A DNA stretch of 32,919 nucleotides from a virus (taxonomy: Duplodnaviria > Heunggongvirae > Uroviricota > Caudoviricetes): IMG/VR virus record IMGVR_UViG_2690316321_000007, one strand, 5' to 3'. Of the stretch, positions 1,447 to 32,274 are shown in pieces (positions within the stretch are counted from its first letter, which is position 1; each line of letters opens with the position of its first letter). The position numbers and the translations under genes are program-made. The notes beneath the pieces are model-generated. The model was not told the origin of the DNA. It saw only the letters and a program-made list of their open reading frames with translations, and did no database searches.

Positions 1447-1533
1447 GCTGAAAAACATAACCCATAAAATGCTAGCTGTACCAGGAACCACCTCCTTAGC
1501 CTGTGTAATCTCCCTTACACGGGCTTATTTTTT
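1447..1533 (+). ncRNA. cyaR: CyaR (RyeE) Hfq-dependent small RNA; its 3' terminator overlaps the prophage att core
   Basis: 87-nt stretch GCTGAAAAACATAACCC...CACCTCCTTAGCCTGTGTAATCTCCCTTACACGGGCTTATTTTTT matches the CyaR sequence as I recall it, including the anti-SD-like CCTCCTTA seed and a terminal hairpin plus T-run. Confidence 0.8.
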
Positions 1534-1534
1534 A
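1507..1534. repeat. att core, left copy (28-bp perfect direct repeat)
   Basis: AATCTCCCTTACACGGGCTTATTTTTTA is identical at 1507..1534 and 32247..32274; its reverse complement contains the 27-bp P2 att core AAAAAATAAGCCCGTGTAAGGGAGATT as I recall it. Confidence 0.85.
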
Positions 1535-1595
1535 CGTACAACAAATTGAAATAAAAGGATTTATTTCTGGTCACGTCCACACATTGACCACATCG

Positions 1596-1628
1596 ACAAA
1601 AAAGCCCCTCGACTGAGGGGCTATTTTT
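1596..1628. terminator. Bidirectional Rho-independent terminator downstream of ogr
   Basis: GC stem GCCCCTC / GAGGGGC with 4-nt loop, flanked by an A8 run on the left and a T5 run on the right. Confidence 0.65.
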
Positions 1629-1632
1629 GTGA

Positions 1633-1851
1633 TCACATCCACATAATTTGCTGTCCTGACGGCAACGGGTGCGGTCTTACGGCGTGGACTTCTCCCGGCT
1701 TCACGATGTATCGCTGCACCGACTCATAAGTGATGAACGTGGCGCTGCAATTCACGTTCTGGCACTGGTGATAACGCTCTTTTGTCGTGTCAGTGATATA
1801 GCGACTTGTACGCGCATGTGCGGCATGCTGGCATAAAGGACAATGAAACAT
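1633..1851 (-). CDS. ogr: Ogr, zinc-finger activator of late transcription (72 aa)
   Basis: Translation MFHCPLCQHAAHARTSRYITDTTKERYHQCQNVNCSATF... matches P2 Ogr; the six-frame ORF was trimmed to the conserved ATG at 1851. Confidence 0.9.
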   Translation of the reverse strand: MFHCPLCQHAAHARTSRYITDTTKERYHQCQNVNCSATFITYESVQRYIVKPGEVHAVRPHPLPSGQQIMWM

Positions 1852-1932
1852 CGCGAGCACCTCTTCCGGTTTTGTTGATGGTGCCATTTTAGTTAATTTA
1901 TCCTTATAAAACAAACAGATAAATAAAACACA

Positions 1933-3096
1933 TCACTCATCATCTTCGGTTTCGTACTCCACATCAGAAAGCCTGACCTCAAGCTCCAAGGACGTCGTGA
2001 AGCCGCTATTATTCAGAAAATGTGTCACCTTAGTGATTGTCCAGTCCTGCTCGTCTATGACGCGCTTAAAGCCTGACACTTTGACCGGCGTTTCCGTGTA
2101 AATATCTGCCCGACCAGTAGCCAGACTGATGGAGAACTCCGCTACACCCCGTTGCAGTTTATCCCACTTCGCCTGAGCGGCGCGCATGGCCTGTGCTTTC
2201 GTGGCATATACCGTGGTCAGTGCAAAAACGTTGTCAGCCTCACCGGCCATGTATTCACCTTCGCGCGCTTCCGGTACTTTTGGCGCTTTCTTCTGCGTGA
2301 CTGGTTTCGCTTTCGGGTGCTCCAGTGCGCGCAGGTGTTTCTCTTTCTTTTTGCGTTTCAGTTTGACCTTCTGCTTTTGCGGCTTCGGGTCTTTGGTGTG
2401 TAACCACTTTGCCGTTACGCCTGTGTAGGCTCCGCGGTCAGCAATCGCAAAATGATGACGGTCGCCGTCGCTGCGGGTGATGGTAATCTGCGGGATTTTT
2501 TTACCGCTGGCCGTCACCCCCTGCCCCGCTTTGAGAAACAGCAGTTTTCCCATTTTTACCGACACCTCACCGCCGTTGCGTTCTGCAAGACGGGTCAGGA
2601 ATTTCGCATCAGACTCCTGCGACTGGTCGATGTGCGGGATTTTAATTCCGGCCAGTGACGGCGCGACACTGGCTTCCAGCCTGTTACGGGAGGCTATCGC
2701 TTCAACAATCGCACCGAGCGTGGTGTCATGCCAGGAGCCTTCCCGGCGGGAATTGAGCGTCCCGCGAAAATCTGCACTCCGGGCGCGGATGGTGACCACA
2801 TCCGGTGCGCCCCGGTGTTCAACCTCATCAACGGTAAATTTCCCTTTGCATACCAGGGCAAAACCTTTCCAGCCGATATACACCGTCAGGACAGCGCCAC
2901 GAACCGGCAACCCGACCTGCCCGTCGGCATCGTTCAGTTCAATATCAAGCTGGTCAGCCTCAAAGCCCCGGTTATCCGTCAGGGTCATGCTCATCAGACG
3001 GTCGCTGATATTGCCGGTAATATCCCTGCTGTCGAGCATCAGCATGTAATCCGGCGTCAGCGTACTGCCTGCATCAAATGTCAGCGCATCCAGCAT
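1933..3096 (-). CDS. D: Tail protein D (387 aa)
   Basis: Length equals P2 gpD as recalled; position between ogr and U. Confidence 0.85.
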   Translation of the reverse strand: MLDALTFDAGSTLTPDYMLMLDSRDITGNISDRLMSMTLTDNRGFEADQLDIELNDADGQVGLPVRGAVLTVYIGWKGFALVCKGKFTVDEVEHRGAPDVVTIRARSADFRGTLNSRREGSWHDTTLGAIVEAIASRNRLEASVAPSLAGIKIPHIDQSQESDAKFLTRLAERNGGEVSVKMGKLLFLKAGQGVTASGKKIPQITITRSDGDRHHFAIADRGAYTGVTAKWLHTKDPKPQKQKVKLKRKKKEKHLRALEHPKAKPVTQKKAPKVPEAREGEYMAGEADNVFALTTVYATKAQAMRAAQAKWDKLQRGVAEFSISLATGRADIYTETPVKVSGFKRVIDEQDWTITKVTHFLNNSGFTTSLELEVRLSDVEYETEDDE

Positions 3097-3575
3097 TATT
3101 CCGCCCCCGTCATCCCCGTGAATCTGGTCGCCAGACTACCGGCCTTACCGATGAGCGACTCCGCCTGTTTACCGATATCGCCATAAAGCGCGGCCAGTGA
3201 TTCATCAACGCGGGTGAGCGACAGCGTAAAATCAATTTTTCGGGGTGTGCCGTCTGCAAAGAAAATACTCCCTGTTTCACTCACCCTGCTGATGACATAC
3301 ATGCCGTAAATCATGCCGGTGCCATCCAGCAACGGCCACGCCCGTCCCTCATCTGCCATCAGTCTGAGCGTGGTCATCGTCAGCTTGCCGCCGGTCAGTT
3401 CGGGATAAAGCACACCGGCAAGCGTGATGTTTTCCTCGCCCACACCGAGAAACTGAAAGGCATCCCGTTTACCGATACGGGAATTTGACGGCCAGCGATA
3501 ATCTGATTCACGCTGCATGGTCTGGTGTGGCAGCGTCTGGCGCATAAAAACAAACATACCTAACGCGAGCATCAT
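3096..3575 (-). CDS. U: Tail terminator protein U (159 aa)
   Basis: Length and position match P2 gpU; start overlaps the D stop. Confidence 0.85.
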   Translation of the reverse strand: MMLALGMFVFMRQTLPHQTMQRESDYRWPSNSRIGKRDAFQFLGVGEENITLAGVLYPELTGGKLTMTTLRLMADEGRAWPLLDGTGMIYGMYVISRVSETGSIFFADGTPRKIDFTLSLTRVDESLAALYGDIGKQAESLIGKAGSLATRFTGMTGAE

Positions 3576-3589
3576 TTTTCGTCACCTCC

Positions 3590-6037
3590 TTAACCGTCAT
3601 GCATCATGCTGGCACGGGCGCGCGCACGTTTATCCCGCTCGTATTTTTCGAGCGCATCCTGTAACTGGCGGTCGAGCTGAGTCCCCGGCGCAGTACCGCC
3701 CGTCAGACTGATGTGATATTCGTTTTTACTCTGGTCCACATAAGAGCGGCCAGCCAGTGCCGTAACCGGCTGATAAGCCTGATAGCCTGCATAAGAGCTG
3801 GTCGCCGGAATATAACCACCGGTGCCATACGTGGCGGCATGAGTTCTGGCGGCGGTCTGGTCAAGCGTGCCTGACTCTTTGTTGATAACACCGAGTTTTT
3901 CCAGTACCCAGTCAATACCGCTGCGCAGTTTGTTGAACGCATTAAGCGGCAGCATCAACGCGTCAGCCAGTGCCTGCCCGAACATGACGCCCGTATCACG
4001 GCAACGGTTCAGGGTGTCCTGGGTGGCTTTGACCGGGGCAATCAGGTTTTTAAACCACTGCCACGCGGCCTGTAACTTTTCGCCCAGCCAGTCAAACACC
4101 GGCTTAAGTGGCGTGAACAGTTCCCCCACCGGCGCAAATGCCGCTTTCAGCCCTTCAACCACACCGCCAAAGAATGCGCTGACAGGCTCCCAGTATTTAC
4201 GGATAAGTAACGCCCCGGCGACAATGGCGGCCACCACGGCCACAACCGGCCAGCTAATCGCCCCGATGGCCGTCATAACAGCACTGCCAACCGTCGTGAA
4301 GATTGCTCCCATTGCGCCTGCTGCCGCGATGATGGCATTGATGCCGGTGATAACCGGCCAGGCTACGAGGCCAATGGCACCGATGACACCAATCAGCGCC
4401 AGTGCAACACCGACAATGATGCCGATGGTTGACGCCAGTGATTTGTTTTTCTGTATCCAGCCGTCGAGTTTTAACACATACTTTGTGGCCGTCTGCGTGA
4501 GCTTACGCAGTGCGCCTTCCTGCTGGTCAAACAGGTCAGTCCCCACCGCCTCATAAGCGGACTGAAACTCCTTAAAGTCACCGCCGAGGTTGTCCTGCAT
4601 GATATTTACCAGCTCTGCAGTCTTCCCGTCTGAGGCTTTAAACGCAGCGGTCAGTTTGTCCAGCTTTCCGGTTGAGGCGGCAGTCATCAGCACAGCGGCG
4701 GCTGAGCTGGCCTCCTCCCCGAAAATGGTTTTCATGTATTCAGCCTGCTGGGCAGTACCGAGCCGGTTTTTCTCAAAACTGGCCTGCATTTCTTTCAGAA
4801 TGGTAAATACTGGTCGGGTGTTTCCCTTGCTGTCTGAGGTTTTCACACCAAGCTCTTTCAGTGCATCCCATGCTTTTCCCGCCGGTGCCTGCAGGCGGCT
4901 TAACACGGCACGGCTTCCCGTCCCCGCCATTGAACCAGTAATTTTTGCGTCATGCAGCGCCCCGACCATTGCGGCGGTTTCTTCAATGCTGACACCGGCA
5001 TTTTTTGCCACTGGTGCGGCATAGGTCAGCGCATCGCTCATACCGTCAAAATCGGCGGCGGTTTTGTTCATCGTCATGGAGAGAACATCCCCGATATGAG
5101 CGACCTTATCGTTTGAAAGCTGAAAGGCAGATTTCATCCCCATCAGCAGGGCGGCGTTTTCTTCCATCGTGCGGCGGTTCGCCAGCGCCATATTCAGTGT
5201 AACCGGCGTTGCCGCCTGAATGGCATCAACATCCCCACCGGCTTTCGCAATGATAATCTGCGCACCGGCTGCATCATCTGCCGAGGCTGCGGTATTGTCG
5301 CCGAGCCGGCGCGCCTGTTTGCGTAATGCGGCCATTTCGGTGGAGTCTTTTGCCACTCCGAGCACAGCCTGTAATTCTGAGTTTTTCTGCGCAAACTCAT
5401 AACCGGGCATCAGCAGCTTAACTCCGGCCATCGTTCCCGCAGCAGCAATCCCCACACCGGCAGCGCCCACTGAGGCCATATTTCCGGCCAGTTCCTTTCC
5501 TGCCTGATAACGCTGTTTGACTGCGTTAAGTTTTGCCTGTTGTGCACTGACACGCGCCAGCGCGTCACGCTGACGGTTAAGCTGTGCGGTGGTTTCACTG
5601 ATACGGTTTTTCAGTCCCTGCTCATCATGTGCAAGATTGCGGGTATTAATTCCCACAACGGCCAGTTCCCGCTGCTGGCGTTTAACGGAATCCGTCAGGC
5701 GGTTATATTTCACCTGTAAGTCCTCCGCCGCACGCTTTGCGGATTCCAGCACTTTCGCCTGAGCACGGGTCGGTCGTTCGGTATTTTTAAACTGTGTGGC
5801 AAGGGCTTCGGCTTCCTGCCGCGCCTTTTCAAGTGCATGACCAGTCACGGCGAGCTGTGCACTGGTCTTGCGGAACCCCTCAATACGGGATGCGTGACCG
5901 TTCAGCTCGCGCAGTGATTTTTGTGTTTCCCGGATATCCCCCGACAGCGACTTGCTCGCTGTACGGATGGATTTAAACGGGCGGGATGCCTGGTCAACAG
6001 CCCTGAGCAATACCTGTAATTTTACATTGTTACTCAT
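3590..6037 (-). CDS. T: Tail tape measure protein T (815 aa)
   Basis: Long Ala/Gly-rich protein with coiled-coil N-terminus and hydrophobic central segment; length equals P2 gpT as recalled. Confidence 0.9.
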   Translation of the reverse strand: MSNNVKLQVLLRAVDQASRPFKSIRTASKSLSGDIRETQKSLRELNGHASRIEGFRKTSAQLAVTGHALEKARQEAEALATQFKNTERPTRAQAKVLESAKRAAEDLQVKYNRLTDSVKRQQRELAVVGINTRNLAHDEQGLKNRISETTAQLNRQRDALARVSAQQAKLNAVKQRYQAGKELAGNMASVGAAGVGIAAAGTMAGVKLLMPGYEFAQKNSELQAVLGVAKDSTEMAALRKQARRLGDNTAASADDAAGAQIIIAKAGGDVDAIQAATPVTLNMALANRRTMEENAALLMGMKSAFQLSNDKVAHIGDVLSMTMNKTAADFDGMSDALTYAAPVAKNAGVSIEETAAMVGALHDAKITGSMAGTGSRAVLSRLQAPAGKAWDALKELGVKTSDSKGNTRPVFTILKEMQASFEKNRLGTAQQAEYMKTIFGEEASSAAAVLMTAASTGKLDKLTAAFKASDGKTAELVNIMQDNLGGDFKEFQSAYEAVGTDLFDQQEGALRKLTQTATKYVLKLDGWIQKNKSLASTIGIIVGVALALIGVIGAIGLVAWPVITGINAIIAAAGAMGAIFTTVGSAVMTAIGAISWPVVAVVAAIVAGALLIRKYWEPVSAFFGGVVEGLKAAFAPVGELFTPLKPVFDWLGEKLQAAWQWFKNLIAPVKATQDTLNRCRDTGVMFGQALADALMLPLNAFNKLRSGIDWVLEKLGVINKESGTLDQTAARTHAATYGTGGYIPATSSYAGYQAYQPVTALAGRSYVDQSKNEYHISLTGGTAPGTQLDRQLQDALEKYERDKRARARASMMHDG

Positions 6038-6457
6038 TCGTGTTTCCGCTTCGCCGGAGCGCCTTTTCGCGCCATGTGATGAGTTCGGTCAGACTCATGG
6101 GATACAGTTCTGATGGCGGCCAGTGAAATATCACTGCCACATCTGCCATCAGGTCATCGACCGACAGATTTTTCGGAAACGTCACTGCACCGAGTTCGGA
6201 GACAAAAAACCGACCACCTTACCGGCCAGCGCCACAAGGTCAGGCAGTTCCAGCGCGGCGACCTCCTGCTCGGTCAGCATCGGTGCCGTCATGCGCGGCA
6301 GCACCTTAATCAGTGCATCGACTTCGGAGTTTGCGACCGCAGCCAGACTGACACCGCGCAGCGTCCCGGCATTAGGTTTCATCAGCGTGACCTGTTCGAT
6401 AACCTGCTCACCACGCTTGACCGGATTGTCCAGGGTAATCACATTTTCTTTGTTCAT
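6030..6457 (-). CDS. E': E+E' tail chaperone made by programmed -1 frameshift (142 aa predicted)
   Basis: Translated by hand: after slippage at 6203..6209 the -1 frame stays open for 57 codons to a TAA overlapping the T start codon; 85 + 57 = 142 aa, the E+E' length recalled for P2. Confidence 0.75.
6182..6457 (-). CDS. E: Tail assembly chaperone E (91 aa)
   Basis: Length and position match P2 gpE; ends just 3' of the TTTTTTG slippery heptamer. Confidence 0.85.
   Translation of the reverse strand: MNKENVITLDNPVKRGEQVIEQVTLMKPNAGTLRGVSLAAVANSEVDALIKVLPRMTAPMLTEQEVAALELPDLVALAGKVVGFLSPNSVQ
6203..6209 (-). promoter_or_regulatory. Programmed -1 ribosomal frameshift slippery heptamer TTTTTTG
   Basis: Heptamer on the coding (minus) strand covering E codons 84-85 (TTT TTG) and the preceding T; conserved location of the tail-chaperone frameshift. 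Confidence 0.7.
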
Positions 6458-6513
6458 GGTTTTCTCACTTCTGAATCGGGGTTAACCGGTCAGCCAGGCT
6501 GACCGGATGAAAA

Positions 6514-7032
6514 TCACAGGCCGATATTGCGGCGGTGTTGCTCCAGCCGGTCGACGCCGTTCACCTTCTCAATCATGTTGATGGTGTCGATTTCGACCAG
6601 TTCCTTACCGTCCATCGTCAGCCGGAAATAGGTGCAGACCACAGAGATTTTCGACTCGGTATCTTCTCCCTGTTTCCCCTCGCCGGTGTCGATTTCTTTC
6701 TGACGTCCACGCATGATCACTTCGACGGCCACCGTTTCGCCGGTATCGTCGCGCTGGTAAGAGCCTGCAAAACGAATCGGTACGGCATCCACACCGGTTG
6801 CGGCGTAAAGCTCCCAGATAACCGAATCCGGGAAGCCACCGAGCGACCACTCCATTGACAGCGCATCGTCATCAAGGCCGAGGTCTACCGGTGCGCTGCC
6901 GTTCATCCCCGCACCGCGATAGTTTTCGAGCTTACGGGTCAGTTTTGGTAGCGTGACGGACTTCGCGACGCCCTGATAGCTGTAGCCGTTCAGAAAGACG
7001 TTCATTAACTTGAGTTTGCGCGGCATTGCCAT
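6514..7032 (-). CDS. FII: Tail tube protein FII (172 aa)
   Basis: Length and position match P2 gpFII. Confidence 0.85.
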   Translation of the reverse strand: MAMPRKLKLMNVFLNGYSYQGVAKSVTLPKLTRKLENYRGAGMNGSAPVDLGLDDDALSMEWSLGGFPDSVIWELYAATGVDAVPIRFAGSYQRDDTGETVAVEVIMRGRQKEIDTGEGKQGEDTESKISVVCTYFRLTMDGKELVEIDTINMIEKVNGVDRLEQHRRNIGL

Positions 7033-7044
7033 CGGTCAGGCTCC

Positions 7045-8235
7045 TTAATTGCTGTTAACCGAGGTGACCAGATTTGCCAGGTATTTATCGGTAATACGCT
7101 GGCGCAGGGTCAGGTTTTCAAGAGGAGGCACCGGTGTATAGTCGTAGTCGATATACAGTTTTCCGGCCTTGAGGGTTTCCGCATCGTTGGATTCTTCGCT
7201 GAACCAGCAGGTCGCATCCACGATATAGCCGTTTGTTTTCAGCTCACGGAATTTGGCATTGATGCCGTCAACGATGTCGCGAATCAGCGTTGCGGTGATG
7301 GGCTTGTCCACCGCCCACATGTGCGCCTCAGCCATCGTGTCGGCCAGCACCTGCGCGGTGCGGGTGTAGTTTTCAAAGAGGAACAGCGGGTCATCAGAGC
7401 AGGTACGGTTACCCCAGAATCGGAAACCGTCGCGGCGAATCAGCGTTGTGACGCCTGACTCGTTAAGCAGGTCAGCATCGGTGCCGGACTCCTGCAAATC
7501 CCAGAATACAGATGTGCTGATGCCGGTAACACCGTTTACCCCAACGTTGGACAGCGTTTTATGCCAGCCCTGCTCCTGGTCGATTTTAGCGCGCAGACCC
7601 AGCGCACGGGCGGTGGCATACGCGGTGGCGGTGGTGCTGCTGACCGTATCCCATGCGAGGAAATCCGGCCAGATGACCATCAGCTCACGCTGGCTGAAAT
7701 TCTGGCGGTAGGCTTTCACCTCGGAAATGGTTTTACAGCCCCATGCGCTGATATACCCGAAAGCGCGCAGCTTCTGACATACTGATGCCAGTGCAACCGC
7801 CACCTCTTTGGTGTCCAGTCCCGGCACGCCGAGAATACGCGGTTTAACACCGGTAACAGACTCCGCCGCCAGCAGGGCTTTCAGTCCGGTGTACTGACCG
7901 TTTTCGTCGGTGGTGCCAATGATATTGGAAACGGTCTGCGCGAGTTTCGTTTCCTCGTCGTCGCCGGTGCCGTCTTCCACGCGCACAACAACGGTGACCG
8001 GTTTTGACTGGTCAGCGATGGCCTGCAGCGACGCCGCCAGCGTGCCTTTTTTACCGGCCTTTGCAATTGCGCTCTGCACATTGGTAATCAGCACCGGTTT
8101 ATTGAGGGGGAAGGTTTCCGCATCCGCATCGCTGGCCATGCAGACCATGCCAACAATGGCGGTGGATACGGTGGAAATGACGCGGGTGCCGTCGTTAATC
8201 TCCAGCACCTGCACGCCGTGATGATAGTCACTCAT
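7045..8235 (-). CDS. FI: Contractile tail sheath protein FI (396 aa)
   Basis: Length and position match P2 gpFI; SD GGAG upstream of the ATG. Confidence 0.9.
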   Translation of the reverse strand: MSDYHHGVQVLEINDGTRVISTVSTAIVGMVCMASDADAETFPLNKPVLITNVQSAIAKAGKKGTLAASLQAIADQSKPVTVVVRVEDGTGDDEETKLAQTVSNIIGTTDENGQYTGLKALLAAESVTGVKPRILGVPGLDTKEVAVALASVCQKLRAFGYISAWGCKTISEVKAYRQNFSQRELMVIWPDFLAWDTVSSTTATAYATARALGLRAKIDQEQGWHKTLSNVGVNGVTGISTSVFWDLQESGTDADLLNESGVTTLIRRDGFRFWGNRTCSDDPLFLFENYTRTAQVLADTMAEAHMWAVDKPITATLIRDIVDGINAKFRELKTNGYIVDATCWFSEESNDAETLKAGKLYIDYDYTPVPPLENLTLRQRITDKYLANLVTSVNSN

Positions 8236-8326
8236 CCGTTTAACTCCGTGGTTAATGGGTGCAACTATTTTCTGTTGGGCAGTGCATGAGACGCTATTTG
8301 ACCTGGCTGGTCAGTGGATGAAACAA

Positions 8327-8357
8327 CAGATAAAGAAAATGCGGGCAATTCGCCCGC
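8327..8357 (-). terminator. Terminator-like hairpin upstream of FI (GCGGGC-aattc-GCCCGC, U-rich on minus strand)
   Basis: 6-bp GC stem followed on the minus strand by ATTTTCTTTA; lies between the cargo genes and the FI late promoter region. Confidence 0.45.
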
Positions 8358-8645
8358 CTGTCCTGATTTGTACACACTCATTTTCCGACTGACAATTTAC
8401 ATAGCCCAAAATCTATCAAATCTGACAGTCTGCTTTGAGTGAGAAGCGGAAGTTCAATGTGATAAAGCTCAGGAACATTGTCGTTGATGATGATAAAGAG
8501 GATCAGACTAACTAGCACTTCTCATCACGTTGATAAGGCATAGAAATCACAAACACTATTGTGAATATCGTTTTACTATAGTAAATTCAAGTAAGTTCTT
8601 TTCGTTCGTTATTACACAAAATAAAGTTCACTCTAAGGTTGAAAA

Positions 8646-9089
8646 ATGTTAGATATCAGAATGTCACGACCATCTGAAGCAGATGAGATCATACAAATCT
8701 GGAAGAGTTCAGTCGATGCTACCCACGACTTTCTTACAGGTCATGACCGACAAGAAATCGAAAAAGAAGTTGTCGGCTTTTTCTCAGAAACTCCTGTATG
8801 GGTTGCAACAAATCAGGATGACCAACCGCTAGGATTTATGTTTTTGCATGAGGGCCATCTGGAGGCACTTTTTGTAGCAGGCTCTGCTCGCGGACTTGGC
8901 GTCGGAAAACGTTTGATCTCTCATGCACTGGCGCTGCATCCAGAGCTAAGCGTTGATGTAAATGAACAAAACCAGCAGGCTGTAGGGTTTTATCAGCATA
9001 TGGGTTTTCAGGTATTAGGGCGTTCCGATCTGGATAATCAGGGAAGGCCATACCCCTTGTTGCATCTGAGAATGGCCAATAACATGTAA
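8646..9089 (+). CDS. GNAT-family N-acetyltransferase, YjaB-like (147 aa); accessory cargo
   Basis: Motifs IWKSSVDATHDFL, LGFMFL, VGKRLISHAL and NEQNQQAVGFYQHMGF resemble E. coli YjaB from memory; AT-rich upstream region; lies in the G-FI junction. Confidence 0.75.
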   Translation: MLDIRMSRPSEADEIIQIWKSSVDATHDFLTGHDRQEIEKEVVGFFSETPVWVATNQDDQPLGFMFLHEGHLEALFVAGSARGLGVGKRLISHALALHPELSVDVNEQNQQAVGFYQHMGFQVLGRSDLDNQGRPYPLLHLRMANNM

Positions 9090-9109
9090 CCAATGTGGCA
9101 GAGAAGATA

Positions 9110-10457: not shown

Positions 10458-10460
10458 AAA

Positions 10461-21243: not shown

Positions 21244-21301
21244 AGTTTTTCCTGAAATTAAGGGTTAATCGTGAAGGTTTTCCCGGACTGACTGACGCCG
21301 G

Positions 21302-24102: not shown

Positions 24103-25136
24103 TGAGCAAGAAAAAAGGGAAAACACCGCAACCTGCGGCAAAAAAAATGACCGCCAGCGCCCCGAAAATGGAGGCATTCACCTTTGGTGAGCCGGTGCCG
24201 GTACTCGACCGCCGTGACATTCTGGATTACGTCGAGTGCATCAGTAACGGCAGATGGTATGAGCCGCCGGTCAGCTTTACCGGTCTGGCGAAAAGCCTGC
24301 GTGCTGCCGTGCATCACAGCTCGCCGATTTACGTCAAACGCAATATTCTGGCCTCGACATTTATCCCGCATCCGTGGCTTTCCCAGCAGGATTTCAGCCG
24401 CTTTGTGCTGGATTTTCTGGTGTTCGGTAATGCGTTTCTGGAAAAGCGTTACAGCACCACCGGTAAGGTCATCAGACTGGAAACCTCACCGGCAAAATAT
24501 ACCCGCCGTGGCGTGGAGGAGGATGTTTACTGGTGGGTGCCGTCCTTCAACGAGCCGACAGCCTTCACGCCCGGCTCCGTGTTTCACCTGCTGGAGCCGG
24601 ATATTAATCAGGAGCTGTACGGCCTGCCGGAATATCTCAGCGCCCTTAACTCTGCCTGGCTGAATGAGTCGGCCACGCTGTTCCGCCGCAAGTATTACGA
24701 AAATGGCACACATGCCGGATACATCATGTACGTCACCGATGCCGTGCAGGATCGCAACGATATCGAAATGCTTCGCGAAAACATGGTCAAGTCGAAAGGC
24801 CGCAACAACTTTAAAAACCTGTTTCTCTATGCCCCGCAGGGGAAAGCTGACGGCATTAAAATTATCCCGCTCAGTGAAGTGGCAACGAAGGACGATTTTT
24901 TTAATATCAAAAAAGCCAGCGCCGCTGACCTGCTGGACGCACACCGCATCCCCTTTCAGTTGATGGGCGGCAAGCCGGAGAACGTCGGGTCACTGGGAGA
25001 TATTGAGAAAGTGGCAAAGGTCTTTGTCCGCAATGAGCTTATCCCGTTACAGGACAGGATCCGCGAGATAAACGGCTGGCTCGGTCAGGAGGTCATCCGC
25101 TTTAAAAACTACTCACTGGACACTGACAACGACTGA
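24102..25136 (+). CDS. Q: Portal protein Q (344 aa)
   Basis: Length and position match P2 gpQ; start overlaps the P stop. Confidence 0.85.
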   Translation: MSKKKGKTPQPAAKKMTASAPKMEAFTFGEPVPVLDRRDILDYVECISNGRWYEPPVSFTGLAKSLRAAVHHSSPIYVKRNILASTFIPHPWLSQQDFSRFVLDFLVFGNAFLEKRYSTTGKVIRLETSPAKYTRRGVEEDVYWWVPSFNEPTAFTPGSVFHLLEPDINQELYGLPEYLSALNSAWLNESATLFRRKYYENGTHAGYIMYVTDAVQDRNDIEMLRENMVKSKGRNNFKNLFLYAPQGKADGIKIIPLSEVATKDDFFNIKKASAADLLDAHRIPFQLMGGKPENVGSLGDIEKVAKVFVRNELIPLQDRIREINGWLGQEVIRFKNYSLDTDND

Positions 25137-25163: not shown

Positions 25164-25305
25164 ACACCCCGTCATCACCCCCTCACACGCTCACCACCGC
25201 ACAAAACACCCAGCAGACACACCAACGCCTCAACGGGCAGACTAAGCGCCGTCACGACGCGCTGAGACGCTGAAAAAATAAAATCAGCACCACCGCCAGC
25301 GCGCA

Positions 25306-25324
25306 GTGCTTTCCCCGCCTCGCC
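25306..25324. other. cos site: 19-nt cohesive-end sequence
   Basis: GTGCTTTCCCCGCCTCGCC is the reverse complement of GGCGAGGCGGGGAAAGCAC, the P2 cohesive end as I recall it; lies about 170 bp after Q, as expected for the Q-proximal genome end. Confidence 0.65.
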
Positions 25325-25895
25325 CGCCCGCTTCATGTGGCGGTTTTAATGCAGTTGCATAGATACTATGGATCCGCACCAGCTCTGACCGCGAGCAGCT
25401 GGAACGGGCATCCCCGACGCATGCAAAAACATTCACTTGTTGCATGCACGGCTTATTAAATGACAAATCAACTTAAGCGTCACCGCAGCTCCCACAAAAA
25501 AACGTAACACCATGATTTTAGTGATATTTATGACTTTTTCAATTGCTTATTTAAGTCCGCCATATTGAAACCGTGCATTTTTTAGCCACCAATAACTTTA
25601 AAAAATTTACATTGCTTTCAATACCTTATCATCCGTAGTCCCTGCTTTTTACTTTGAGCTATATCAAAAAAAGCTCAAACATCCTTGATGCAAAACCAGT
25701 ATTACACAACATAAAATGCAACCAGAAACAACGACATACTATATGTTGTGTTGTTCAGGCTCTCTGTTCGGTGATATGCCAGATCACTTTGCGTTTAAAC
25801 AGAGCATTATTTCAGGGCAAGACTTCGCTAAATAGTAACTCCGCCTCAGAAGCGCATATATCGGCGGAAATTGCCCTCTGCTTACAGGAGGAGAT

Positions 25896-26009
25896 ATGAA
25901 GAAGTGCTATTACTGCATTCTCGTTCTGGCCCTCTTTGGCTATCCATATGGTAGTCCAAGTGGTTTGTCAGTAAACGTCAGTAATATCCATGTAAGTATT
26001 ATTCTTTAG
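25896..26009 (+). CDS. Candidate small hydrophobic protein (37 aa, MKKCYYCILVLALFGYPYGS...)
   Basis: ATG 4-5 nt after a strong SD AGGAGG; ends 11 nt before a strong terminator; lies in the AT-rich region at the P2 old/tin position. Could equally be the N-terminal stub of a lost gene. Confidence 0.35.
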   Translation: MKKCYYCILVLALFGYPYGSPSGLSVNVSNIHVSIIL

Positions 26010-26020
26010 TATGCTTCAAA

Positions 26021-26051
26021 CAAAAAAACCACCTGCCAGGGTGGTTTTTTT
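26021..26051. terminator. Bidirectional Rho-independent terminator (A7-CCACCTG..CAGGGTGG-T8)
   Basis: GC-rich hairpin flanked by an A-run and a T-run; ends both the small ORF (plus) and the early operon ending with A (minus). Confidence 0.7.
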
Positions 26052-26311
26052 GCGCCTGTCATCATTCCGATGAAAGACTAGCAAGACTTCGCTCGAGATG
26101 AATTATGCTTCGACAAAAGGTCACTCGCAATGGTTTTATTAGCCGAAATAGATGCTCTTTTATGACTCGAATCAAATAGCTACCTTAAATTACATGCTAG
26201 CGATTCAATACAATTTAGCCTTCTACTTCAGCATGCTATTGCTCCTCATCTGCCTTAGAGGCGCTCCGCATAATCCATTCAAAGGCATATAAAATCACGC
26301 TGCATTTTTAC

Positions 26312-28588
26312 TCAAATGGGTAACAAAAATCCAGGCCACTCATCAGCGACCGGATACGTGAATTTTTTCCCGTCATAATTTACGGTCGCGCCACGCGCCA
26401 GCGCCTCAAGCTCCCATCGCTGCGGCCTGATACCGTTCTGAGCAAGGTCAACGCGGATACGGGTAATTTGCATTCTTTCCGACCGGGTCAGTCTGGCCGA
26501 TGGTGCAATTTCATGTGGTTTTAACGGGCTTCCGTTTCTTTGCTGACGATTTGGTGTTCTCAGGTCGTGTTTTAATGCCCCCCTGAGCGCCCTCACGACC
26601 TCCGTGTCGTTCCATTCGATAACACCGTCATCAACCAGATTAAGCACTGCTGCGGCGTGTTCAGAAGGTGTGGGAGCCGGTAACGAAGTATCACCACCGG
26701 TGAGCTTTCCACAGTTATTGACAGGACTCCGAGGCGCGGCGATGCCGCTTTTTAAAGTCAAAGGCTCAACGACCGGAACTTTCGGCACAATGCGCCAGTC
26801 CGTCGTTCTGGTGATATGAATATGACGCGCGCCGAGATGCGGCGCGTAAATGCCGACCACTCTCTCGACTTCTTCCTCGTACTCGTTAACGTCATCCGAC
26901 GGGCTACGGGCAACCCTGACAGTCTGACAATCGCGCGGGACATTTGCCCCACCCTGCGCGCTGATATACAACGCAAAATCACCACTGTCTGCGGCAGCGC
27001 GAGCAGCCTCGACGCGTTCGTCAAACTCATCAGCAATACTGACGCCGCGAGGCAATTTGCGTAGTTCACGGTAAGCCCCCATTGTCGGCAGTCCAACCGT
27101 TTTAAATTGCGGGATGCGCCACGTTGACGCCCATGCGGTAACAGCCGCGGCAGTATCTTTAAGCGGCTTACCGGTATCGTTATCGAGCTGACCATCCAGT
27201 GCATAGCCGTCGATATTTTTTGAAATGTATTTCGCGATATATCCCGCAGCACCGCCCCGGTTAAGGTGCTTTGCCTGAAAACGGTTTCGCGCGGCTCCTC
27301 TTTCGTCACCATCCTCTTTGAGCGCATAGCGACGCATGATTTCGATAATCTGGTTACGCTGGCGTGGATTACAAAAAAGCATCATATGCCAGTGCGGCGT
27401 TCCGTCGTGGTGTGGCTCGACGACACGCAAACCGTAGACCTGTAAATCATTATCCTTGAATGCCGTGCGCATCAGGCTCCAGATGCGGCAGAGATAACGC
27501 TGCGCATCCTTTGGATTAAATGCCTCATCGTTCCAGCCGTGATTAAGCTGAACGGTTTTACTTTCGCCTTTTCTGACCTGACGAGTCGGGTGATACTTTG
27601 ACGGCGCGGTCAGCGTGATAAACATCCCCACATCACCCTCTGCGGCGGCGTAACGCTCAATACCGGCAATGGTGTTCATCAGCTCCATCCGGCGAATTTC
27701 AGGATTAGAAATACTGCCCATCACCTTACTGATAAGGTCGATGCGCTCGCCGGTTTCCCTGTTTTCAAGGTCACACGATTTAAGAAATTCCAGATTTGCC
27801 TGGCGGCGTGCACGCACATCACGAATGGCATGTTTACTGGCATAAGGAGAACGGTCTTTATTCACCTCCCCGACAGCAATCAGTAACGCCTCATGCCAGC
27901 GCATACGCTGGCCTTTGAGCTGATGAGTCCACCACTCATCGTTAAACAGACGGGCAATGGCAGAATATGCCTGCCTCGTGGTCATCTGTCCTTTACGGTA
28001 TTTTTTCCAGTAAAGCGGGGAAATATTGAAAGCACGTGCAGCGCCAGCAACATGACCATAGAGGTGAGCCTGCGCCTCATCCGTAAACAGCGATTCTTTT
28101 TCGCCATGTGCATCCACCCAGGCATCGCTGAGTTCCTCATACATCATGAAAAGCTGCGATGAGATACGGGCAGCAAACTTTTTCAGCTCCTTGTCATTCA
28201 TTCCCGGCAGGCGCGCATAGTGGTCACGCTCTGCCAGAAACAGTAACGACGCGTCGGTGTTCATTTCATGGCGCTGATTCACACGCTCAATGCGCGGCCA
28301 TAAACGACGCTGAAAAGTGGATGTGAGGAAATAAAACCCGTGCACCGGGCTTTTATTGCGCCTGATGTAGTCATAGCGTGAAGTAAACAGCGAGCGCAAA
28401 AAGTAAGGCAGGCGGTTAATCGTGGATAAAACACCTTGCACCTGACGCATCTCGTCACGTGTAAGGGGTCTTTCGCGCCCGACGGCCTCGCGTGGCGCGT
28501 TCCATGCATAAGCACCGGTAAACGCCTTACCGGTGCCTGCAGCAAATGCTGACGGAGGGACAAAACGCCCGGAGGCTTTAACGGCCAT
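26312..28588 (-). CDS. A: Replication initiation protein A (rolling-circle nickase); start uncertain, ORF open to TTG at 28630
   Basis: Conserved MAVKASGRFVPPSAFAAGTGK N-terminus at the ATG at 28588; the ORF extends 14 codons upstream to a TTG. Confidence 0.85.
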   Translation of the reverse strand: MAVKASGRFVPPSAFAAGTGKAFTGAYAWNAPREAVGRERPLTRDEMRQVQGVLSTINRLPYFLRSLFTSRYDYIRRNKSPVHGFYFLTSTFQRRLWPRIERVNQRHEMNTDASLLFLAERDHYARLPGMNDKELKKFAARISSQLFMMYEELSDAWVDAHGEKESLFTDEAQAHLYGHVAGAARAFNISPLYWKKYRKGQMTTRQAYSAIARLFNDEWWTHQLKGQRMRWHEALLIAVGEVNKDRSPYASKHAIRDVRARRQANLEFLKSCDLENRETGERIDLISKVMGSISNPEIRRMELMNTIAGIERYAAAEGDVGMFITLTAPSKYHPTRQVRKGESKTVQLNHGWNDEAFNPKDAQRYLCRIWSLMRTAFKDNDLQVYGLRVVEPHHDGTPHWHMMLFCNPRQRNQIIEIMRRYALKEDGDERGAARNRFQAKHLNRGGAAGYIAKYISKNIDGYALDGQLDNDTGKPLKDTAAAVTAWASTWRIPQFKTVGLPTMGAYRELRKLPRGVSIADEFDERVEAARAAADSGDFALYISAQGGANVPRDCQTVRVARSPSDDVNEYEEEVERVVGIYAPHLGARHIHITRTTDWRIVPKVPVVEPLTLKSGIAAPRSPVNNCGKLTGGDTSLPAPTPSEHAAAVLNLVDDGVIEWNDTEVVRALRGALKHDLRTPNRQQRNGSPLKPHEIAPSARLTRSERMQITRIRVDLAQNGIRPQRWELEALARGATVNYDGKKFTYPVADEWPGFLLPI

Positions 28589-28853
28589 ATGAGCCAAAAG
28601 CCTCTGAACAACGCCTGCTGAGTTGCTCAACCTGCGCGTTTAAATCAGCAAAAGACTTTGCGCTTCCGGTCAGAATATCGTGATGCATCAGGCCGGAAAC
28701 GAGCTGGCTTAATTTCGGATAATAACCAACCACCGCCAGCCATTCCTGACCGGCGTTTTTACCGCTTTCCGCTCTCTTTTTCTCGTGGAGAATAAACTGA
28801 AAGCTGTCACTGGTAACGACATAACGTTCGCCAATTTCAATACGAATACTCAT
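28578..28853 (-). CDS. Early-operon hypothetical protein (91 aa), P2 orf83 position
   Basis: ORF with coupled overlaps in the early operon between A and orf82. Confidence 0.65.
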   Translation of the reverse strand: MSIRIEIGERYVVTSDSFQFILHEKKRAESGKNAGQEWLAVVGYYPKLSQLVSGLMHHDILTGSAKSFADLNAQVEQLSRRCSEAFGSYGR

Positions 28854-29074
28854 GCCGTTCTCCGGTAATGTTTGTTTTTTGCTTCAAAGACTGACTGGCA
28901 GGAAACACAACGCGTGGCTGACGGATAAGCCGCACGACGGGCAGCAGGTATTGGCGCGTCACACTCTTCGCAAACCAGCGCAGAAGCACCGCAATGTTTT
29001 ACCCTTGCCGCGTTAATCTGACGCTCCAGTAATTCAGCCTGTTGTTCCTGAATAAAATCTACGTTGTCCGGCAT
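28850..29074 (-). CDS. DksA/TraR-family C4 zinc-finger protein (74 aa), P2 orf82 position
   Basis: CxxC...CxxC motif (CEECDAPIP...RCVSCQ) typical of TraR/DksA C4 zinc fingers. Confidence 0.7.
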   Translation of the reverse strand: MPDNVDFIQEQQAELLERQINAARVKHCGASALVCEECDAPIPAARRAAYPSATRCVSCQSVFEAKNKHYRRTA

Positions 29075-29379
29075 TACCAGCTCCTTTTGTCGTTAAGTTT
29101 TTTAAATTCATCAGCGCAATAGCTGGCAATTTCTGTCGTTAATTTCGTCAGTTCATCCACGGAGGAGATTTGCTTGTGAAATACAGCGCGTTTAACAAGT
29201 AAATTGACCACATCAGACAGGAGATTTAATTCGTTCTGATAAATCGCGATAACAGACTCAGTTATTTCGCGTTTTTCTTTATCAAGACCAAGTTGAATAA
29301 GAGATAAATCGCCATTTTTCATAACGGTGATTTTTAAGGCGTTATTCAGTAATACAACTGAACGAGAACAGGACATCAA
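29074..29379 (-). CDS. Early-operon hypothetical protein (101 aa), P2 orf81 position
   Basis: ORF with start/stop overlap coupling to its neighbours. Confidence 0.6.
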
Positions 29380-29633
29380 AGCACCTCCCCGCGAGACAAT
29401 CCGATATTGTGAAATTTTTCCGACTCCTGACTGAGCAGCTCGACTATCTCTACGCGGGATAACTCCGCCTTTGTGATGTGGCGAATCATGGCGTCAAGAT
29501 GAGAAGAAAAGCGCGTCGCTGCGTCGGCCTGTGCTTCGGTTCTGGCCTGTTGCAGCAGTAATGCGTATTTACCGCACTGATTTTCAGAAACTGTATGCAT
29601 GACTTTCTCCAGGCAAAAAGAAGCCCCGCACAA
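29376..29633 (-). CDS. Early-operon hypothetical protein (85 aa), P2 orf80 position
   Basis: ORF with start/stop overlap coupling to its neighbours. Confidence 0.6.
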
Positions 29634-29663
29634 TTAAGTGCGTTAAAAACTCTGGTTAATTAC

Positions 29664-30164
29664 TTAATGCAGATATTGCTCTGGTTTTACCGACGTCAGA
29701 ATTGTCGGTGCATACTCAAACAGGCTGAATAATTCACGTAATGCACGGAATAAGGCATCACGCCAGTAACATGATTCTTCATTAATTCGCCAGTATGGCT
29801 GGTTGAATTCTTTTTCAGTCAATCCGGCATGCATAAATAAAGTACGGCGCTGACTGACAGTTAAAAAGCTAATATATGCATACTCACTTGCACCGACCTG
29901 ACGGCGTTTTGAGAATGCCCCACGCAGTTCATCAATTGCACAAACCAGCCGTTCACGTTCGACGTCGTTCATTTCTTCAAAACGTATCGTTGCGTGACGC
30001 TGTTTTAACTGCGCATGGAAGCAAACCGTTAGCCGTTCGCGTTCCATCATCTGATTATAATAATCGCATGTCTCCTGCCAGCGAGGGACGGCCAGATGCT
30101 TACCAATTATCCGGCGCATAGCTGCTGGCTGTTTTTCAACGAGATTGAGCGTCATCACTGTCAT
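29664..30164 (-). CDS. B: Replication protein B (166 aa)
   Basis: Length and position match P2 gpB. Confidence 0.8.
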   Translation of the reverse strand: MTVMTLNLVEKQPAAMRRIIGKHLAVPRWQETCDYYNQMMERERLTVCFHAQLKQRHATIRFEEMNDVERERLVCAIDELRGAFSKRRQVGASEYAYISFLTVSQRRTLFMHAGLTEKEFNQPYWRINEESCYWRDALFRALRELFSLFEYAPTILTSVKPEQYLH

Positions 30165-30355
30165 TTCCAGACCCTCCGGCTTTTCAGAAAGGTCAGAGCC
30201 TTTTTTAACGGACTCTGTTTTTTGGTGCGGATAATGATTCCCTTACGCCCCTTACCGTGGGTGATGGTGAAGTCAATCGCCCTGGGGCTTTCGTTACGCA
30301 ATAACTGAGCAATACAACGAGGCTCATTCATACGGTTCTCCTTAACGTGGTTCAC
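30161..30355 (-). CDS. Small early protein (64 aa), P2 orf78 position
   Basis: Short basic ORF between cox and B. Confidence 0.55.
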   Translation of the reverse strand: MNHVKENRMNEPRCIAQLLRNESPRAIDFTITHGKGRKGIIIRTKKQSPLKKALTFLKSRRVWK

Positions 30356-30617
30356 CGAGACCTAACCACATCAACCAGCCGTCACGAATCTCTTTAGGAC
30401 GGCTTTCATAAGCCAGTTTTAGTCCGTTATTCCATGCCGGAAGGTATACCCAATATTCACCAGCACGCCCCGATACTGACTGAGGGTCAGTAATCTCAAT
30501 AACTGGTAATTTCCCTTTCTCAATCATGCCCCTTACAGCTCTTGGAGTTTTACCAATGAGTTTTGCAAACTCCTGATAAGGCACGGCATCAGTCACGCTT
30601 ACAAGCTGTCTATTCAT
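30342..30617 (-). CDS. cox: Cox, excisionase and repressor of the lysogenic promoter (91 aa)
   Basis: Length and position match P2 Cox; first gene of the early operon, divergent from C. Confidence 0.8.
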   Translation of the reverse strand: MNRQLVSVTDAVPYQEFAKLIGKTPRAVRGMIEKGKLPVIEITDPQSVSGRAGEYWVYLPAWNNGLKLAYESRPKEIRDGWLMWLGLGEPR

Positions 30618-30738
30618 CTGCTACGATTCTCCCTTAGTGCTTCTAATGGCTCCTAATGGCTAATTATTGCCTAAAAGGATAACTCCAGAAGCACAACATT
30701 TCACACTATCAGCAAGAAATTACGCAATCGGAGTAATT
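30618..30738. promoter_or_regulatory. Immunity switch region (divergent Pe/Pc) with tandem 10-bp direct repeats CTAATGGCT at 30643..30651 and 30653..30661 as candidate operator
   Basis: Intergenic region between divergent cox and C; two exact 9-of-10-bp direct repeats spaced one helical turn apart. Confidence 0.45.
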
Positions 30739-31038
30739 ATGTCAATAGACGTTTCGGAGAAGTTGAAGCTAATCCGTGAATCTGAAAGGTTAAACCGTAA
30801 AGAATTCAGTGAATTAACTGGTGTAGCCTACAGCTCACTTTCGAGCTATGAGAGCCGGTCAAAAAACGCTGGAGTTGAAGCCATAATGAAGGTCTTACAA
30901 CATCCCAGATTTACTAAATATACTTTGTGGTTCATGACTGATCAGGTAGCTCCAGAAGCCGGGCAAATTGCGCCCGCTCTCGCACACTTTGGGCAAAACG
31001 AAACAACGTCGCCCCACTCCGGTCAAAAGACTGGTTAA
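30739..31038 (+). CDS. C: Immunity repressor C (99 aa)
   Basis: Start chosen at the ATG with SD GGAG 8 nt upstream; length equals P2 C as recalled; a longer ORF from 30667 was rejected. Confidence 0.75.
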   Translation: MSIDVSEKLKLIRESERLNRKEFSELTGVAYSSLSSYESRSKNAGVEAIMKVLQHPRFTKYTLWFMTDQVAPEAGQIAPALAHFGQNETTSPHSGQKTG

Positions 31039-31153
31039 CAATTTATCGTGAATATATTCATCACAAGTGCCTACTATTGGTGGCTAAATTTCAGCCACCA
31101 CGAAAAAAGCGATTAGTAGTAGCAAAAAAAAGTACCACTCGGAGGGTTTTCTG

Positions 31154-32167
31154 ATGGCAATCAAAAAACTCGATGATGGTCGATATGAAGTGGACATCCG
31201 CCCTACTGGACGTAACGGAAAACGCATCCGTAGGAAGTTTGATAAGAAAAGCGAAGCTGTCGCTTTCGAAAAATACACGTTGTACAACCACCACAATAAA
31301 GAATGGCTATCAAAACCAACAGACAAACGACGTCTGTCGGAACTGACACAGATCTGGTGGGATTTAAAGGGTAAACACGAAGAGCATGGGAAATCTAATC
31401 TTGGAAAAATTGAAATCTTCACAAAAATAACGAATGACCCATGCGCATTTCAAATCACGAAATCCCTTATCAGCCAGTACTGCGCCACCCGAAGAAGTCA
31501 GGGTATTAAACCTTCGAGTATCAATCGTGATTTAACATGTATTAGCGGCATGTTTACAGCCCTGATTGAAGCGGAGTTATTCTTTGGTGAGCACCCTATC
31601 AGAGGGACAAAGAGGCTTAAGGAGGAAAAACCAGAAACAGGCTATCTCACACAGGAAGAAATTGCCTTACTGCTTGCAGCACTTGACGGCGACAACAAAA
31701 AGATTGCGATTCTTTGCCTGAGTACAGGAGCACGTTGGGGAGAAGCAGCTCGTTTGAAAGCAGAAAATATCATCCATAACCGCGTCACGTTTGTTAAAAC
31801 GAAAACAAACAAACCACGCACCGTCCCGATCTCAGAGGCTGTTGCCAAAATGATCGCGGATAACAAACGAGGTTTTTTATTCCCTGATGCTGATTACCCT
31901 CGCTTCAGACGAACAATGAAAGCAATAAAACCGGATTTGCCAACGGGGCAAGCCACACATGCACTAAGGCACAGCTTTGCCACTCATTTCATGATTAATG
32001 GAGGAAGTATTATCACGCTACAACGGATACTAGGTCACACGCGGATTGAGCAAACTATGGTTTACGCTCATTTTGCGCCAGAGTACCTTCAGGACGCCAT
32101 TTCTCTTAATCCGCTAAGAGGTGGTACTGAAGCCGAGAGTGTCCACACAGTGTCCACAGTAGAGTAA
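31154..32167 (+). CDS. int: Tyrosine integrase (337 aa)
   Basis: C-terminal catalytic signature (...HALRHSFATH...LGHTRIEQTMVYAHF) typical of tyrosine recombinases; adjacent to the att core. Confidence 0.9.
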   Translation: MAIKKLDDGRYEVDIRPTGRNGKRIRRKFDKKSEAVAFEKYTLYNHHNKEWLSKPTDKRRLSELTQIWWDLKGKHEEHGKSNLGKIEIFTKITNDPCAFQITKSLISQYCATRRSQGIKPSSINRDLTCISGMFTALIEAELFFGEHPIRGTKRLKEEKPETGYLTQEEIALLLAALDGDNKKIAILCLSTGARWGEAARLKAENIIHNRVTFVKTKTNKPRTVPISEAVAKMIADNKRGFLFPDADYPRFRRTMKAIKPDLPTGQATHALRHSFATHFMINGGSIITLQRILGHTRIEQTMVYAHFAPEYLQDAISLNPLRGGTEAESVHTVSTVE

Positions 32168-32246
32168 CGTTTAAGGGCTTTCAGTGGTAATTTATGCCGC
32201 TCAAACCCGCATTGTACCGTTGAAAGCCCCTACTGGTGACACCCTA

Positions 32247-32274
32247 AATCTCCCTTACACGGGCTTATTTTTTA
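32247..32274. repeat. att core, right copy (28-bp perfect direct repeat)
   Basis: Identical to 1507..1534. Confidence 0.85.

Follow-up and report, generated by a model that had tools for sequence, protein, structure and literature searches.

We take the preferred attachment site of phage P2 in Escherichia coli to be locI (Barreiro & Haggard-Ljungquist 1992). The cyaR RNA is the insertion site of Wphi2 (P2) in E. coli W, of ogr-D′ in K-12 and of P2*B in E. coli B (PMC3032704 Table 2). Integration at the 3′ end of structured RNA genes is also known from 186 in tRNA-Ile and Fels-2/SopE-phi in ssrA, while P2-type elements at rybB occupy another RNA-gene 3′-end site (PMC3448106, PMC3032704).

Here we describe a P2-type prophage (Peduovirus) within a 32,919-nt stretch of DNA, the whole of which is referred to as the window. 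Its integration was almost certainly into the 3′ end of cyaR, which P2 prefers as an attachment site in E. coli. Like 186, Fels-2/SopE-phi and the rybB elements, it carries the 3′ end of its target gene, so that the gene is rebuilt on integration. In contrast to those elements, its target is the terminator of an Hfq-dependent sRNA and not a tRNA-like fold, and the core that it shares with cyaR is short (27-28 nt). Wphi2 and P2*B are P2-type and share the insertion site; they reside in other strains and are likened to the prophage by site. The cryptic remnant ogrK-D′ (yegZ) of K-12 has the same left junction, running from cyaR through a full core, P arm and terminator to ogr. While this remnant is reduced to ogrK and part of D and ends in the truncated core TACACGGGCTTATTTTTTTA, the prophage described here is full-length and has two complete cores.

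The cyaR insertion is a known P2 attachment site and not a new example, as documented by the P2 record and by PMC3032704 Table 2. With the P2 core, the cyaR overlap and the W, B and K-12 elements already described, the locus has little weight as a discovery; its value lies in a clean and fully resolved map of the two junctions (attL and attR), of the arm, IHF and Cox sites and of the terminators (Table 1).

Prophage, att core and rebuilt attP

The prophage (30.7 kb, 1507..32274) is collinear with phage P2 (NC_001895), with a DNA identity of 94.7-97.7%; ogr lies at its left end and int at its right end. It shares the P2 gene order and cos, and its Int is 99.7% identical. Apart from Fun(Z), Orf91, Tin and Old, all P2 proteins were recovered by tblastn in P2 order, mostly at 95-100% identity. 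The late region reads D U T E FII FI, cargo, G H I J W V and orf30, followed by S R lysC/B/A K Y X L M N O and P Q, with low identities to P2 for LysA (92.9%), G (74.9%) and the diverged C-terminal part of H (36%). The immunity region also differs from that of P2: identities of 64.6% for C and 83.5% for Cox, the latter with a Pfam Phage_Cox match, imply a different immunity type. In a set of 5426 complete E. coli genomes from RefSeq, the best match covered 91% at 96.5% identity.

An exact 28-bp direct repeat, AATCTCCCTTACACGGGCTTATTTTTTA, is located at 1507..1534 and again at 32247..32274, and the match stops at its edges on both sides. It corresponds to P2 24355..24382, a span that includes the annotated 27-nt attP, and 28/28 bases are identical. 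P2-like sequence spans 1507 to 32274; where genomes lack the insert, alignment of the left flank breaks off at 1533/1534 and that of the right flank begins at 32247. The initial annotation had taken the repeat to bound the prophage, with the right copy next to int, and both placements agree with these breaks at the core edges and with the position of the int-side junction.

Joining the two prophage ends reproduced the P2 attP region at 251/257 bases. In the P2 record the core sequence is annotated as attP/Int core site, lying between the P arm, the IHF site, the Cox sites and the P′ arm. In the prophage, the core, both arms and the Cox region are essentially the same as in P2, and the predicted IHF site differs by 1 nt; the P′ arm has one mismatch to P2, while both of its arm-site repeats are identical. 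The published consensus for Int arm sites is tgTGGaCa (PMC3448106). A P2-type Int together with tgTGGaCa-type arm sites on both sides of the core, the combination by which a P2-like phage is recognised, was found here.

Table 1. Positions of host, prophage and attachment-site features in the window
Feature	Coordinates	Strand	Basis
yegQ (trhP), host gene upstream of cyaR	1..1362	+	ORF; annotated yegQ/trhP in matching E. coli genomes
cyaR (ryeE) sRNA gene, intact	1447..1533	+	Rfam match; same sequence as unoccupied alleles
CyaR intrinsic terminator, stem-loop 1498..1525 then T-tract	1498..1533	+	Terminator scan; fold
att core, left junction (ogr side), overlapping last 27 nt of cyaR	1507..1534	+	Exact repeat
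Predicted IHF site of attP	1532..1565		Position transfer from P2 24324..24357; 1 mismatch to P2
P arm, two Int arm-type sites (reverse complements TGTGGACG, TGTGGTCA)	1569..1596		P2 24293..24320; identical
P2 terminator for ogr and F operon	1601..1624	-	P2 24265..24288; T-runs on both strands
ogr, late-gene activator	1633..1851	-	100% amino-acid identity to P2 Ogr
P2 late region, tail/lysis/head genes	1933..25136		tblastn of P2 proteins
Cargo region in place of P2 Z/fun	8455..9840		Without P2 match; Pfam, PHROGs, PADLOC
GNAT acetyltransferase, cargo	8646..9089	+	Pfam/PHROGs/PADLOC
HTH-cupin regulator, cargo	within 9110..10027	-	Pfam/PHROGs/PADLOC
cos, 19-nt cohesive end sequence	25306..25324		Exact match to P2 cos
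AT-rich filler, ~1 kb, in place of P2 orf91-tin-old	25354..26327		Without P2 match
Early operon: A, orf83-80, B, orf78, cox	26312..30617	-	tblastn vs P2, 95-100%
C immunity repressor, diverged allele	30739..31038	+	64.6% amino-acid identity to P2 C; PHROG 147
int, tyrosine integrase	31154..32167	+	99.7% amino-acid identity to P2 Int; Pfam Int_N, Phage_integrase
P′ arm, two TGTGGACA arm sites within int 3′ end	32133..32159		P2 24470..24496
Cox binding region of attP	32157..32230		P2 24399..24472; identical to P2
att core, right junction (int side)	32247..32274	+	Exact repeat; unoccupied-genome alignments start at 32247
P-arm-like stretch, host flank, possible scar of older P2-type prophage	32286..32325		P-arm alignment
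yegR, host gene downstream	32602..32919	-	ORF; annotated yegR in matching genomes

The cyaR terminator and its new 3′ flank

The sRNA gene lies downstream of yegQ, both on the + strand, in a conserved position; a Salmonella table shows the same neighbour. The identification of the 87-nt stretch 1447..1533 as CyaR was borne out by Rfam, in which RF00112 (CyaR/RyeE) matched 1445..1530 on the + strand along all 85 positions of the model (100.7 bits, gathering cut-off 47 bits; E 3e-19). The terminator scan returned an 11-pair stem with a 6-nt loop and TATTTTTT directly after the stem, and folding yielded the identical hairpin. About 98 nt, from 1439 to the core end at 1534, agree at every base with the empty alleles of AR_0017 and O157 and with K-12; on the promoter side, the comparison comprised the 8 nt upstream of cyaR (1439..1446). 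Two traits of CyaR, cAMP-CRP-dependent transcription and Hfq binding, are predicted for this copy. The left copy of the core thus completes an intact cyaR, as had been proposed.

Only the final two bases of the ascending arm of the CyaR terminator fall within the repeat, which starts there; the core therefore comprises the loop, descending arm and T-tract. The earlier statement that the repeat covers the last 27 nt of cyaR holds for these three elements but not for the whole terminator stem: the ascending arm at 1498..1506 is host DNA, present at the left junction only, and no CyaR-type hairpin was formed when the right junction was folded.

An alignment to the unoccupied yegQ-cyaR-yegR locus, suggested as a check by the initial annotation, showed the joined host flanks as one uninterrupted piece with a single core in E. 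coli AR_0017, at 99.8% identity. The flanks are contiguous or nearly so in 4565 of the 5426 complete E. coli genomes. The int-core-yegR junction was found in 805/5426 (~15%) and the yegQ-cyaR-core-ogr junction in 1125/5426, remnants of the K-12 type being counted with the latter. The core is present in more than 120 viral contigs of IMG/VR; an exact-core scan of one genome per species returned Escherichia only, namely E. ruysiae and two E. coli genomes. Sequence identities, prophage boundaries, the empty allele and the rebuilt attP are shown directly and all support the original proposal of a prophage integrated in the CyaR terminator, with the att core restoring the sRNA.

We infer the recombination mechanism from the known biology of P2 Int, IHF and Cox. 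P2 is not SOS-inducible, so mitomycin or UV would be the wrong trigger for the excised circles that the initial annotation proposed to seek after induction. The phage carries a copy of the last 27 nt of cyaR, comprising the terminator loop, descending arm and U-tract, and Int would have mediated site-specific recombination between the attP core and the identical bacterial sequence at the cyaR 3′ end. Since the crossover would fall within shared sequence carried by the phage, each junction would receive one core: the left would consist of the 5′ part of host cyaR, the core and the phage P arm and ogr, and the right of int and the P′ arm, the core and the host flank. As judged by the alignments, the sRNA sequence is unchanged by integration, with the change confined to DNA past the U-tract.

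That DNA had been described as phage sequence of the ogr side containing a second terminator at 1596..1628. The flank does run from host cyaR through the core and P arm to ogr, and the hairpin is real (1603..1622; called as a terminator on the + and - strands by the scan; fold -26.4 kcal/mol, z -5.3), but it is P2's own two-way rho-independent terminator, which serves ogr and the F operon. Read-through from cyaR could, incidentally, be halted there as well.

Two other readings bear on this model. The repeats might be a chance match, or a target duplication made by transposition, rather than att sites. With up to three mismatches allowed, the 28-mer has two matches in the whole window and 0 in 100 shuffles; the free P2 genome contains the core as annotated attP, the unoccupied site holds a single copy, and the joined ends rebuild attP. 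These results rule out such an origin with near certainty. Integration at genuine att sites might nevertheless alter CyaR output, if the new flank shifts termination efficiency or permits read-through antisense to ogr. The bases immediately after the U-tract do go from TGCATAAGCCC to CGTACAACAAA, and in the unoccupied allele GGGCTTAT of the core can pair in the fold with ATAAGCCC downstream. However, the terminator hairpin and T-tract are wholly unchanged, a strong two-way terminator stands ~70 nt downstream, ahead of ogr, and K-12, the usual strain for the study of CyaR, has the same phage-type flank, leaving an altered output very improbable. By analogy with K-12, CyaR expression is probably unaffected by the new 3′ flank. 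The textbook K-12 cyaR locus already carries a phage-derived 3′ flank (core, P arm, ogrK), and CyaR was characterised in this strain; the northern blot that had been suggested has in effect already been carried out.

Swapped regions and the capsid gene

The P-arm-like scar, the cargo without recognised defence genes and the frameshifted N are small leads rather than findings. Where P2 has Z/fun, the prophage has the GNAT and HTH-cupin genes, a cassette found in 53/5426 E. coli genomes. At the position of P2 orf91-tin-old it has ~1 kb without an evident gene, present in 183 genomes and carrying no gene annotation there. No ORF longer than 81 aa was found in this filler (25354..26327), nor any Rfam match above gathering score; with a permissive threshold, Rfam returned only sub-threshold matches at chance level across 25300..26350. 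The two filler ORFs (81 and 37 aa) had no PHROGs or PADLOC match, and the 81-aa ORF had no Pfam match. PADLOC detected no defence system among five ORFs (GNAT, HTH-cupin, orf30 and the two filler ORFs), with generic HTH matches only. The tail-fibre gene H differs from that of P2 in holding an expanded 132-nt repeat (4.7 copies).

The capsid gene N has a 1-bp deletion in a G run at ~21044 that splits it into two frames. This frameshift could be either a real mutation or a sequencing error. The prophage copy may consequently not produce virions, which raises the possibility of an element that integrated correctly at the cyaR core and has lost particle production. The break in the major capsid gene favours such a loss, as does a recent survey in which 98% of P2-like prophages had at least one pseudogene (PMC13586616). 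Against it, all P2 core genes except N are full length with high identity to P2, cos, int, cox and both att arms are intact, and a one-base homopolymer difference is a typical sequencing error. We regard a defective prophage as plausible, though somewhat the less probable outcome.

A P-arm-like stretch in the right host flank

Twelve nucleotides beyond the right core begins a 40-nt stretch of host flank with 33/41 identity to the P arm (~80%), including an exact 15-mer and one of the two Int arm-type sites intact, at a spacing from the core similar to that of the P arm. The empty loci of AR_0017 and O157 have the stretch as well, and in K-12 it lies to the right of the remnant; megablast coverage in most genomes suggests that the right flank carrying it is widespread.

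One reading of this likeness is that the ‘empty’ cyaR attachment site is itself the scar of a much older P2-type prophage, which we consider unlikely on present evidence. A sensitive blastn search of 50,697 phage records with flank 32275..32470 found no diverged P2-like phage as its source. There were two matches, a 2.4-kb record and a partial prophage-derived genome; the latter, the one inspected, runs into host yegR. An ogr relic was also sought in the right flank and rejected, as local alignment beyond the 41-nt stretch gave only non-collinear 8-14-mers. If the Int N-terminal domain can still bind to the arm site in the stretch, this site could partly explain the attachment preference; and if the scar reading is true, the locus would record repeated rounds of occupation, represented by the scar, the K-12-type remnant and the present prophage.

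The att core and the 3′ end of cyaR

The P2-type prophage is bounded by two exact copies of the 28-mer AATCTCCCTTACACGGGCTTATTTTTTA, a direct repeat with no matching base beyond either end. No further copy was found in the window with up to three mismatches allowed, and none in 100 shuffles. With junction queries, the alignments of insert-free genomes stopped at 1533/1534 on the left and began at 32247 on the right. Because these breaks fall exactly at the edges of the core, the repeats are the true prophage boundaries, as the initial annotation had proposed. Alignment against an unoccupied yegQ-cyaR-yegR locus agreed with this placement: the joined host flanks (901..1534 plus 32275..32919; 1279 nt) formed one uninterrupted match of 99.8% identity in E. 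coli AR_0017, where yegQ and yegR are neighbours. Of 5426 complete E. coli genomes, 4565 have the two flanks directly or almost directly joined.

The 87-nt stretch overlapping the left repeat had been assigned to CyaR, and the Rfam covariance model for CyaR/RyeE matched there over its full length (100.7 bits; gathering score 47). With CyaR taken as an 87-nt RNA, the repeat corresponds to its last 27 nt and one further base. The repeat was also said to cover the terminator stem and U-tract. This holds for the loop, the descending arm and the T-tract, but not for most of the ascending arm: since the core begins at 1507, it contributes the last two bases of that arm, the loop, the entire descending arm and the T-tract. 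The remaining ascending arm is host DNA present only at the left junction, and folding produced no CyaR-like hairpin at the right junction. At the left junction the host 5′ part of cyaR is joined to the core and the phage P arm, so the RNA sequence is unaltered. The left core copy does complete an intact cyaR: over the 98 nt from 8 nt upstream of the gene (1439) to the end of the core (1534), the window shows no difference from AR_0017, an O157:H7 strain or K-12.

A second terminator had been placed downstream at 1596..1628. The hairpin was confirmed (−26.4 kcal/mol, z −5.3, a T-run on each strand), but its P2 counterpart is annotated as 'rho-independent terminator for ogr transcript and F operon', so it is the phage's own element, on the minus strand. 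Because the hairpin is symmetric, it could also stop read-through from cyaR ahead of an antisense run into ogr.

Features of the prophage and its host flanks (window coordinates)
Feature	Position	Strand	Remarks
yegQ/trhP	1..1362		ORF, 85 nt upstream of cyaR; so named in the annotation of matching genomes
CyaR/RyeE, Rfam match	1445..1530	+	
CyaR, as taken here	1447..1533		87-nt RNA
CyaR terminator stem	1498..1525		11 pairs, 6-nt loop; fold and terminator scan
Core, left copy	1507..1534		ogr side
ogr/F-operon terminator hairpin	1603..1622	−	
Cassette at P2 Z/fun position	8455..9840		
GNAT acetyltransferase	8646..9089	+	convergent with XRE-HTH/cupin regulator (−)
Tail-fibre gene H	10461..12590		
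Tandem array in H	11457..12072	−	
Major capsid gene N	20171..21243	−	
cos	25306..25324		19 nt
AT-rich DNA at P2 orf91-tin-old position	25354..26327		~1 kb
37-aa ORF	25896..26009		hydrophobic
Strong hairpin	near 26025..26060		
Cox	30342..30617	−	
C (repressor)	30739..31038	+	
Core, right copy	32247..32274		int side
8-bp inverted repeat	32261..32284		GGGCTTAT ... ATAAGCCC
P-arm-like host stretch	32286..32325		
AT-rich host stretch	approx. 32428..32597		~170 nt

Integration at cyaR

In the P2 record (NC_001895), the sequence of the repeat bears the attP / Int core site annotation. To one side of it lie the IHF site, P arm and ogr/F-operon terminator; to the other lie the Cox sites and, within the int 3′ end, the P′ arm. 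An attP rebuilt from the right end (32121..32274) and the left end (1535..1640) agreed with the corresponding region of P2 at 251 of 257 bases. There is no mismatch to P2 in the core, the P arm or the Cox region, and a single one in each of the IHF site and P′ arm stretch; the arm-site repeats are identical and agree with the published P2-type consensus tgTGGaCa (PMC3448106). The phage genome carries its own copy of the cyaR 3′ end, and the junction structure is the expected product of a crossover inside the shared core. In P2, Int and IHF recombine attP and attB, and excision is directed by Cox. By analogy, Int with IHF would recombine the two sites here and Cox would direct excision; a crossover inside the core would generate the left junction with the RNA sequence kept. 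Taken together, these results confirm the observation of a prophage at the cyaR att core and, with minor corrections, support its interpretation.

The site is the P2 attachment site called locI, and the arrangement is already known rather than new, so its interest is low. Of the 5426 complete E. coli genomes, 805 have the int-core-yegR junction and 1125 the yegQ-cyaR-core-ogr junction, the latter count including K-12-type remnants. Over 120 IMG/VR contigs contain the core; in a scan of 185,579 species, each represented by one genome, exact copies of it occurred only in Escherichia. K-12 shares the left junction of the window, running from cyaR through core, P arm, terminator and ogrK into a D fragment, a remnant reportedly described by Barreiro and Haggard-Ljungquist in 1992. 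The ogrK-D' remnant of K-12 / DH5a joins D gene sequence at its right end to an incomplete core, TACACGGGCTTATTTTTTTA (with an additional T), so the deletion that formed it had one endpoint within D and the other in the right-hand core. K-12 work routinely uses the gene order cyaR-ogrK-yegR (PMC9765468). In Table 2 of the E. coli W genome paper, three elements share the insertion site 'cyaR RNA': Wphi2 (P2) of strain W, ogr-D' of K-12 and P2*B of strain B (PMC3032704). Integration into other small-RNA genes is documented too, at rybB, ssrA and the sdsR locus (sources including PMC3032704 and PMC3448106).

The right host flank

Host DNA 12 to 51 nt right of the core is identical to the P2 P arm at 33 of 41 positions; in P2 attP, the P arm lies 28-67 nt from the core. 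This stretch includes the exact 15-mer CATTGACCACATCGA and one intact predicted Int arm-type site, and it is also found in unoccupied alleles and right of the K-12 remnant (compared loci L002, L003 and L004). On the simplest reading of the sequence, it may derive from the left end of a far older, since decayed P2-type prophage, in which case even 'empty' sites are scars. A sensitive blastn search of 50,697 phage records found no diverged phage matching the rest of the flank (32275..32470).

Two further features were observed. The 8-bp inverted repeat, formed between the core's right edge and the host flank, is kept in the unoccupied site and the right junction and broken at the left junction. 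The AT-rich stretch between the P-arm-like sequence and yegR occurs in the window and AR_0017 but not in O157 or the majority of other genomes, which accounts for the 87% coverage of the joined-flank query common there.

Differences from P2

The prophage (1507..32274) is collinear with P2 at 94.7-97.7% DNA identity. By tblastn, all P2 proteins except Fun(Z), Orf91, Tin and Old were matched in P2 order, mostly at 95-100% identity (Ogr 100%, Int 99.7%), and the cos sequence is exact. Instead of Z/fun, the window has a GNAT/HTH-cupin cassette, which occurs in 53 of the 5426 E. coli genomes and in which PADLOC recognised no defence system. Instead of orf91-tin-old, it has AT-rich DNA that is shared by 183 genomes, none of which has a gene annotated there. 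No ORF in this DNA exceeds 81 aa, Rfam gave nothing above the gathering score, and neither of two ORFs tested had a PHROGs or PADLOC match; the small hydrophobic ORF and the strong hairpin lie within it.

Major capsid gene N is divided into two reading frames by the loss of one G from a run around 21044 (GGG, where P2 has GGGG). This may reflect either a defective prophage or a homopolymer base-call error. C and Cox are 64.6% and 83.5% identical to their P2 counterparts, whereas their neighbours Int and B are 98-100% identical. The divergence of C and Cox implies a different immunity type, and the pattern resembles an exchange of the immunity module. In gene H, a 132-nt (44-aa) unit occurs in 4.7 tandem copies (88% identity), an array absent from P2 H. 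A different receptor specificity is suggested by divergence from P2 in the C-terminal part of H (36% amino acid identity) and in the chaperone G (75%).
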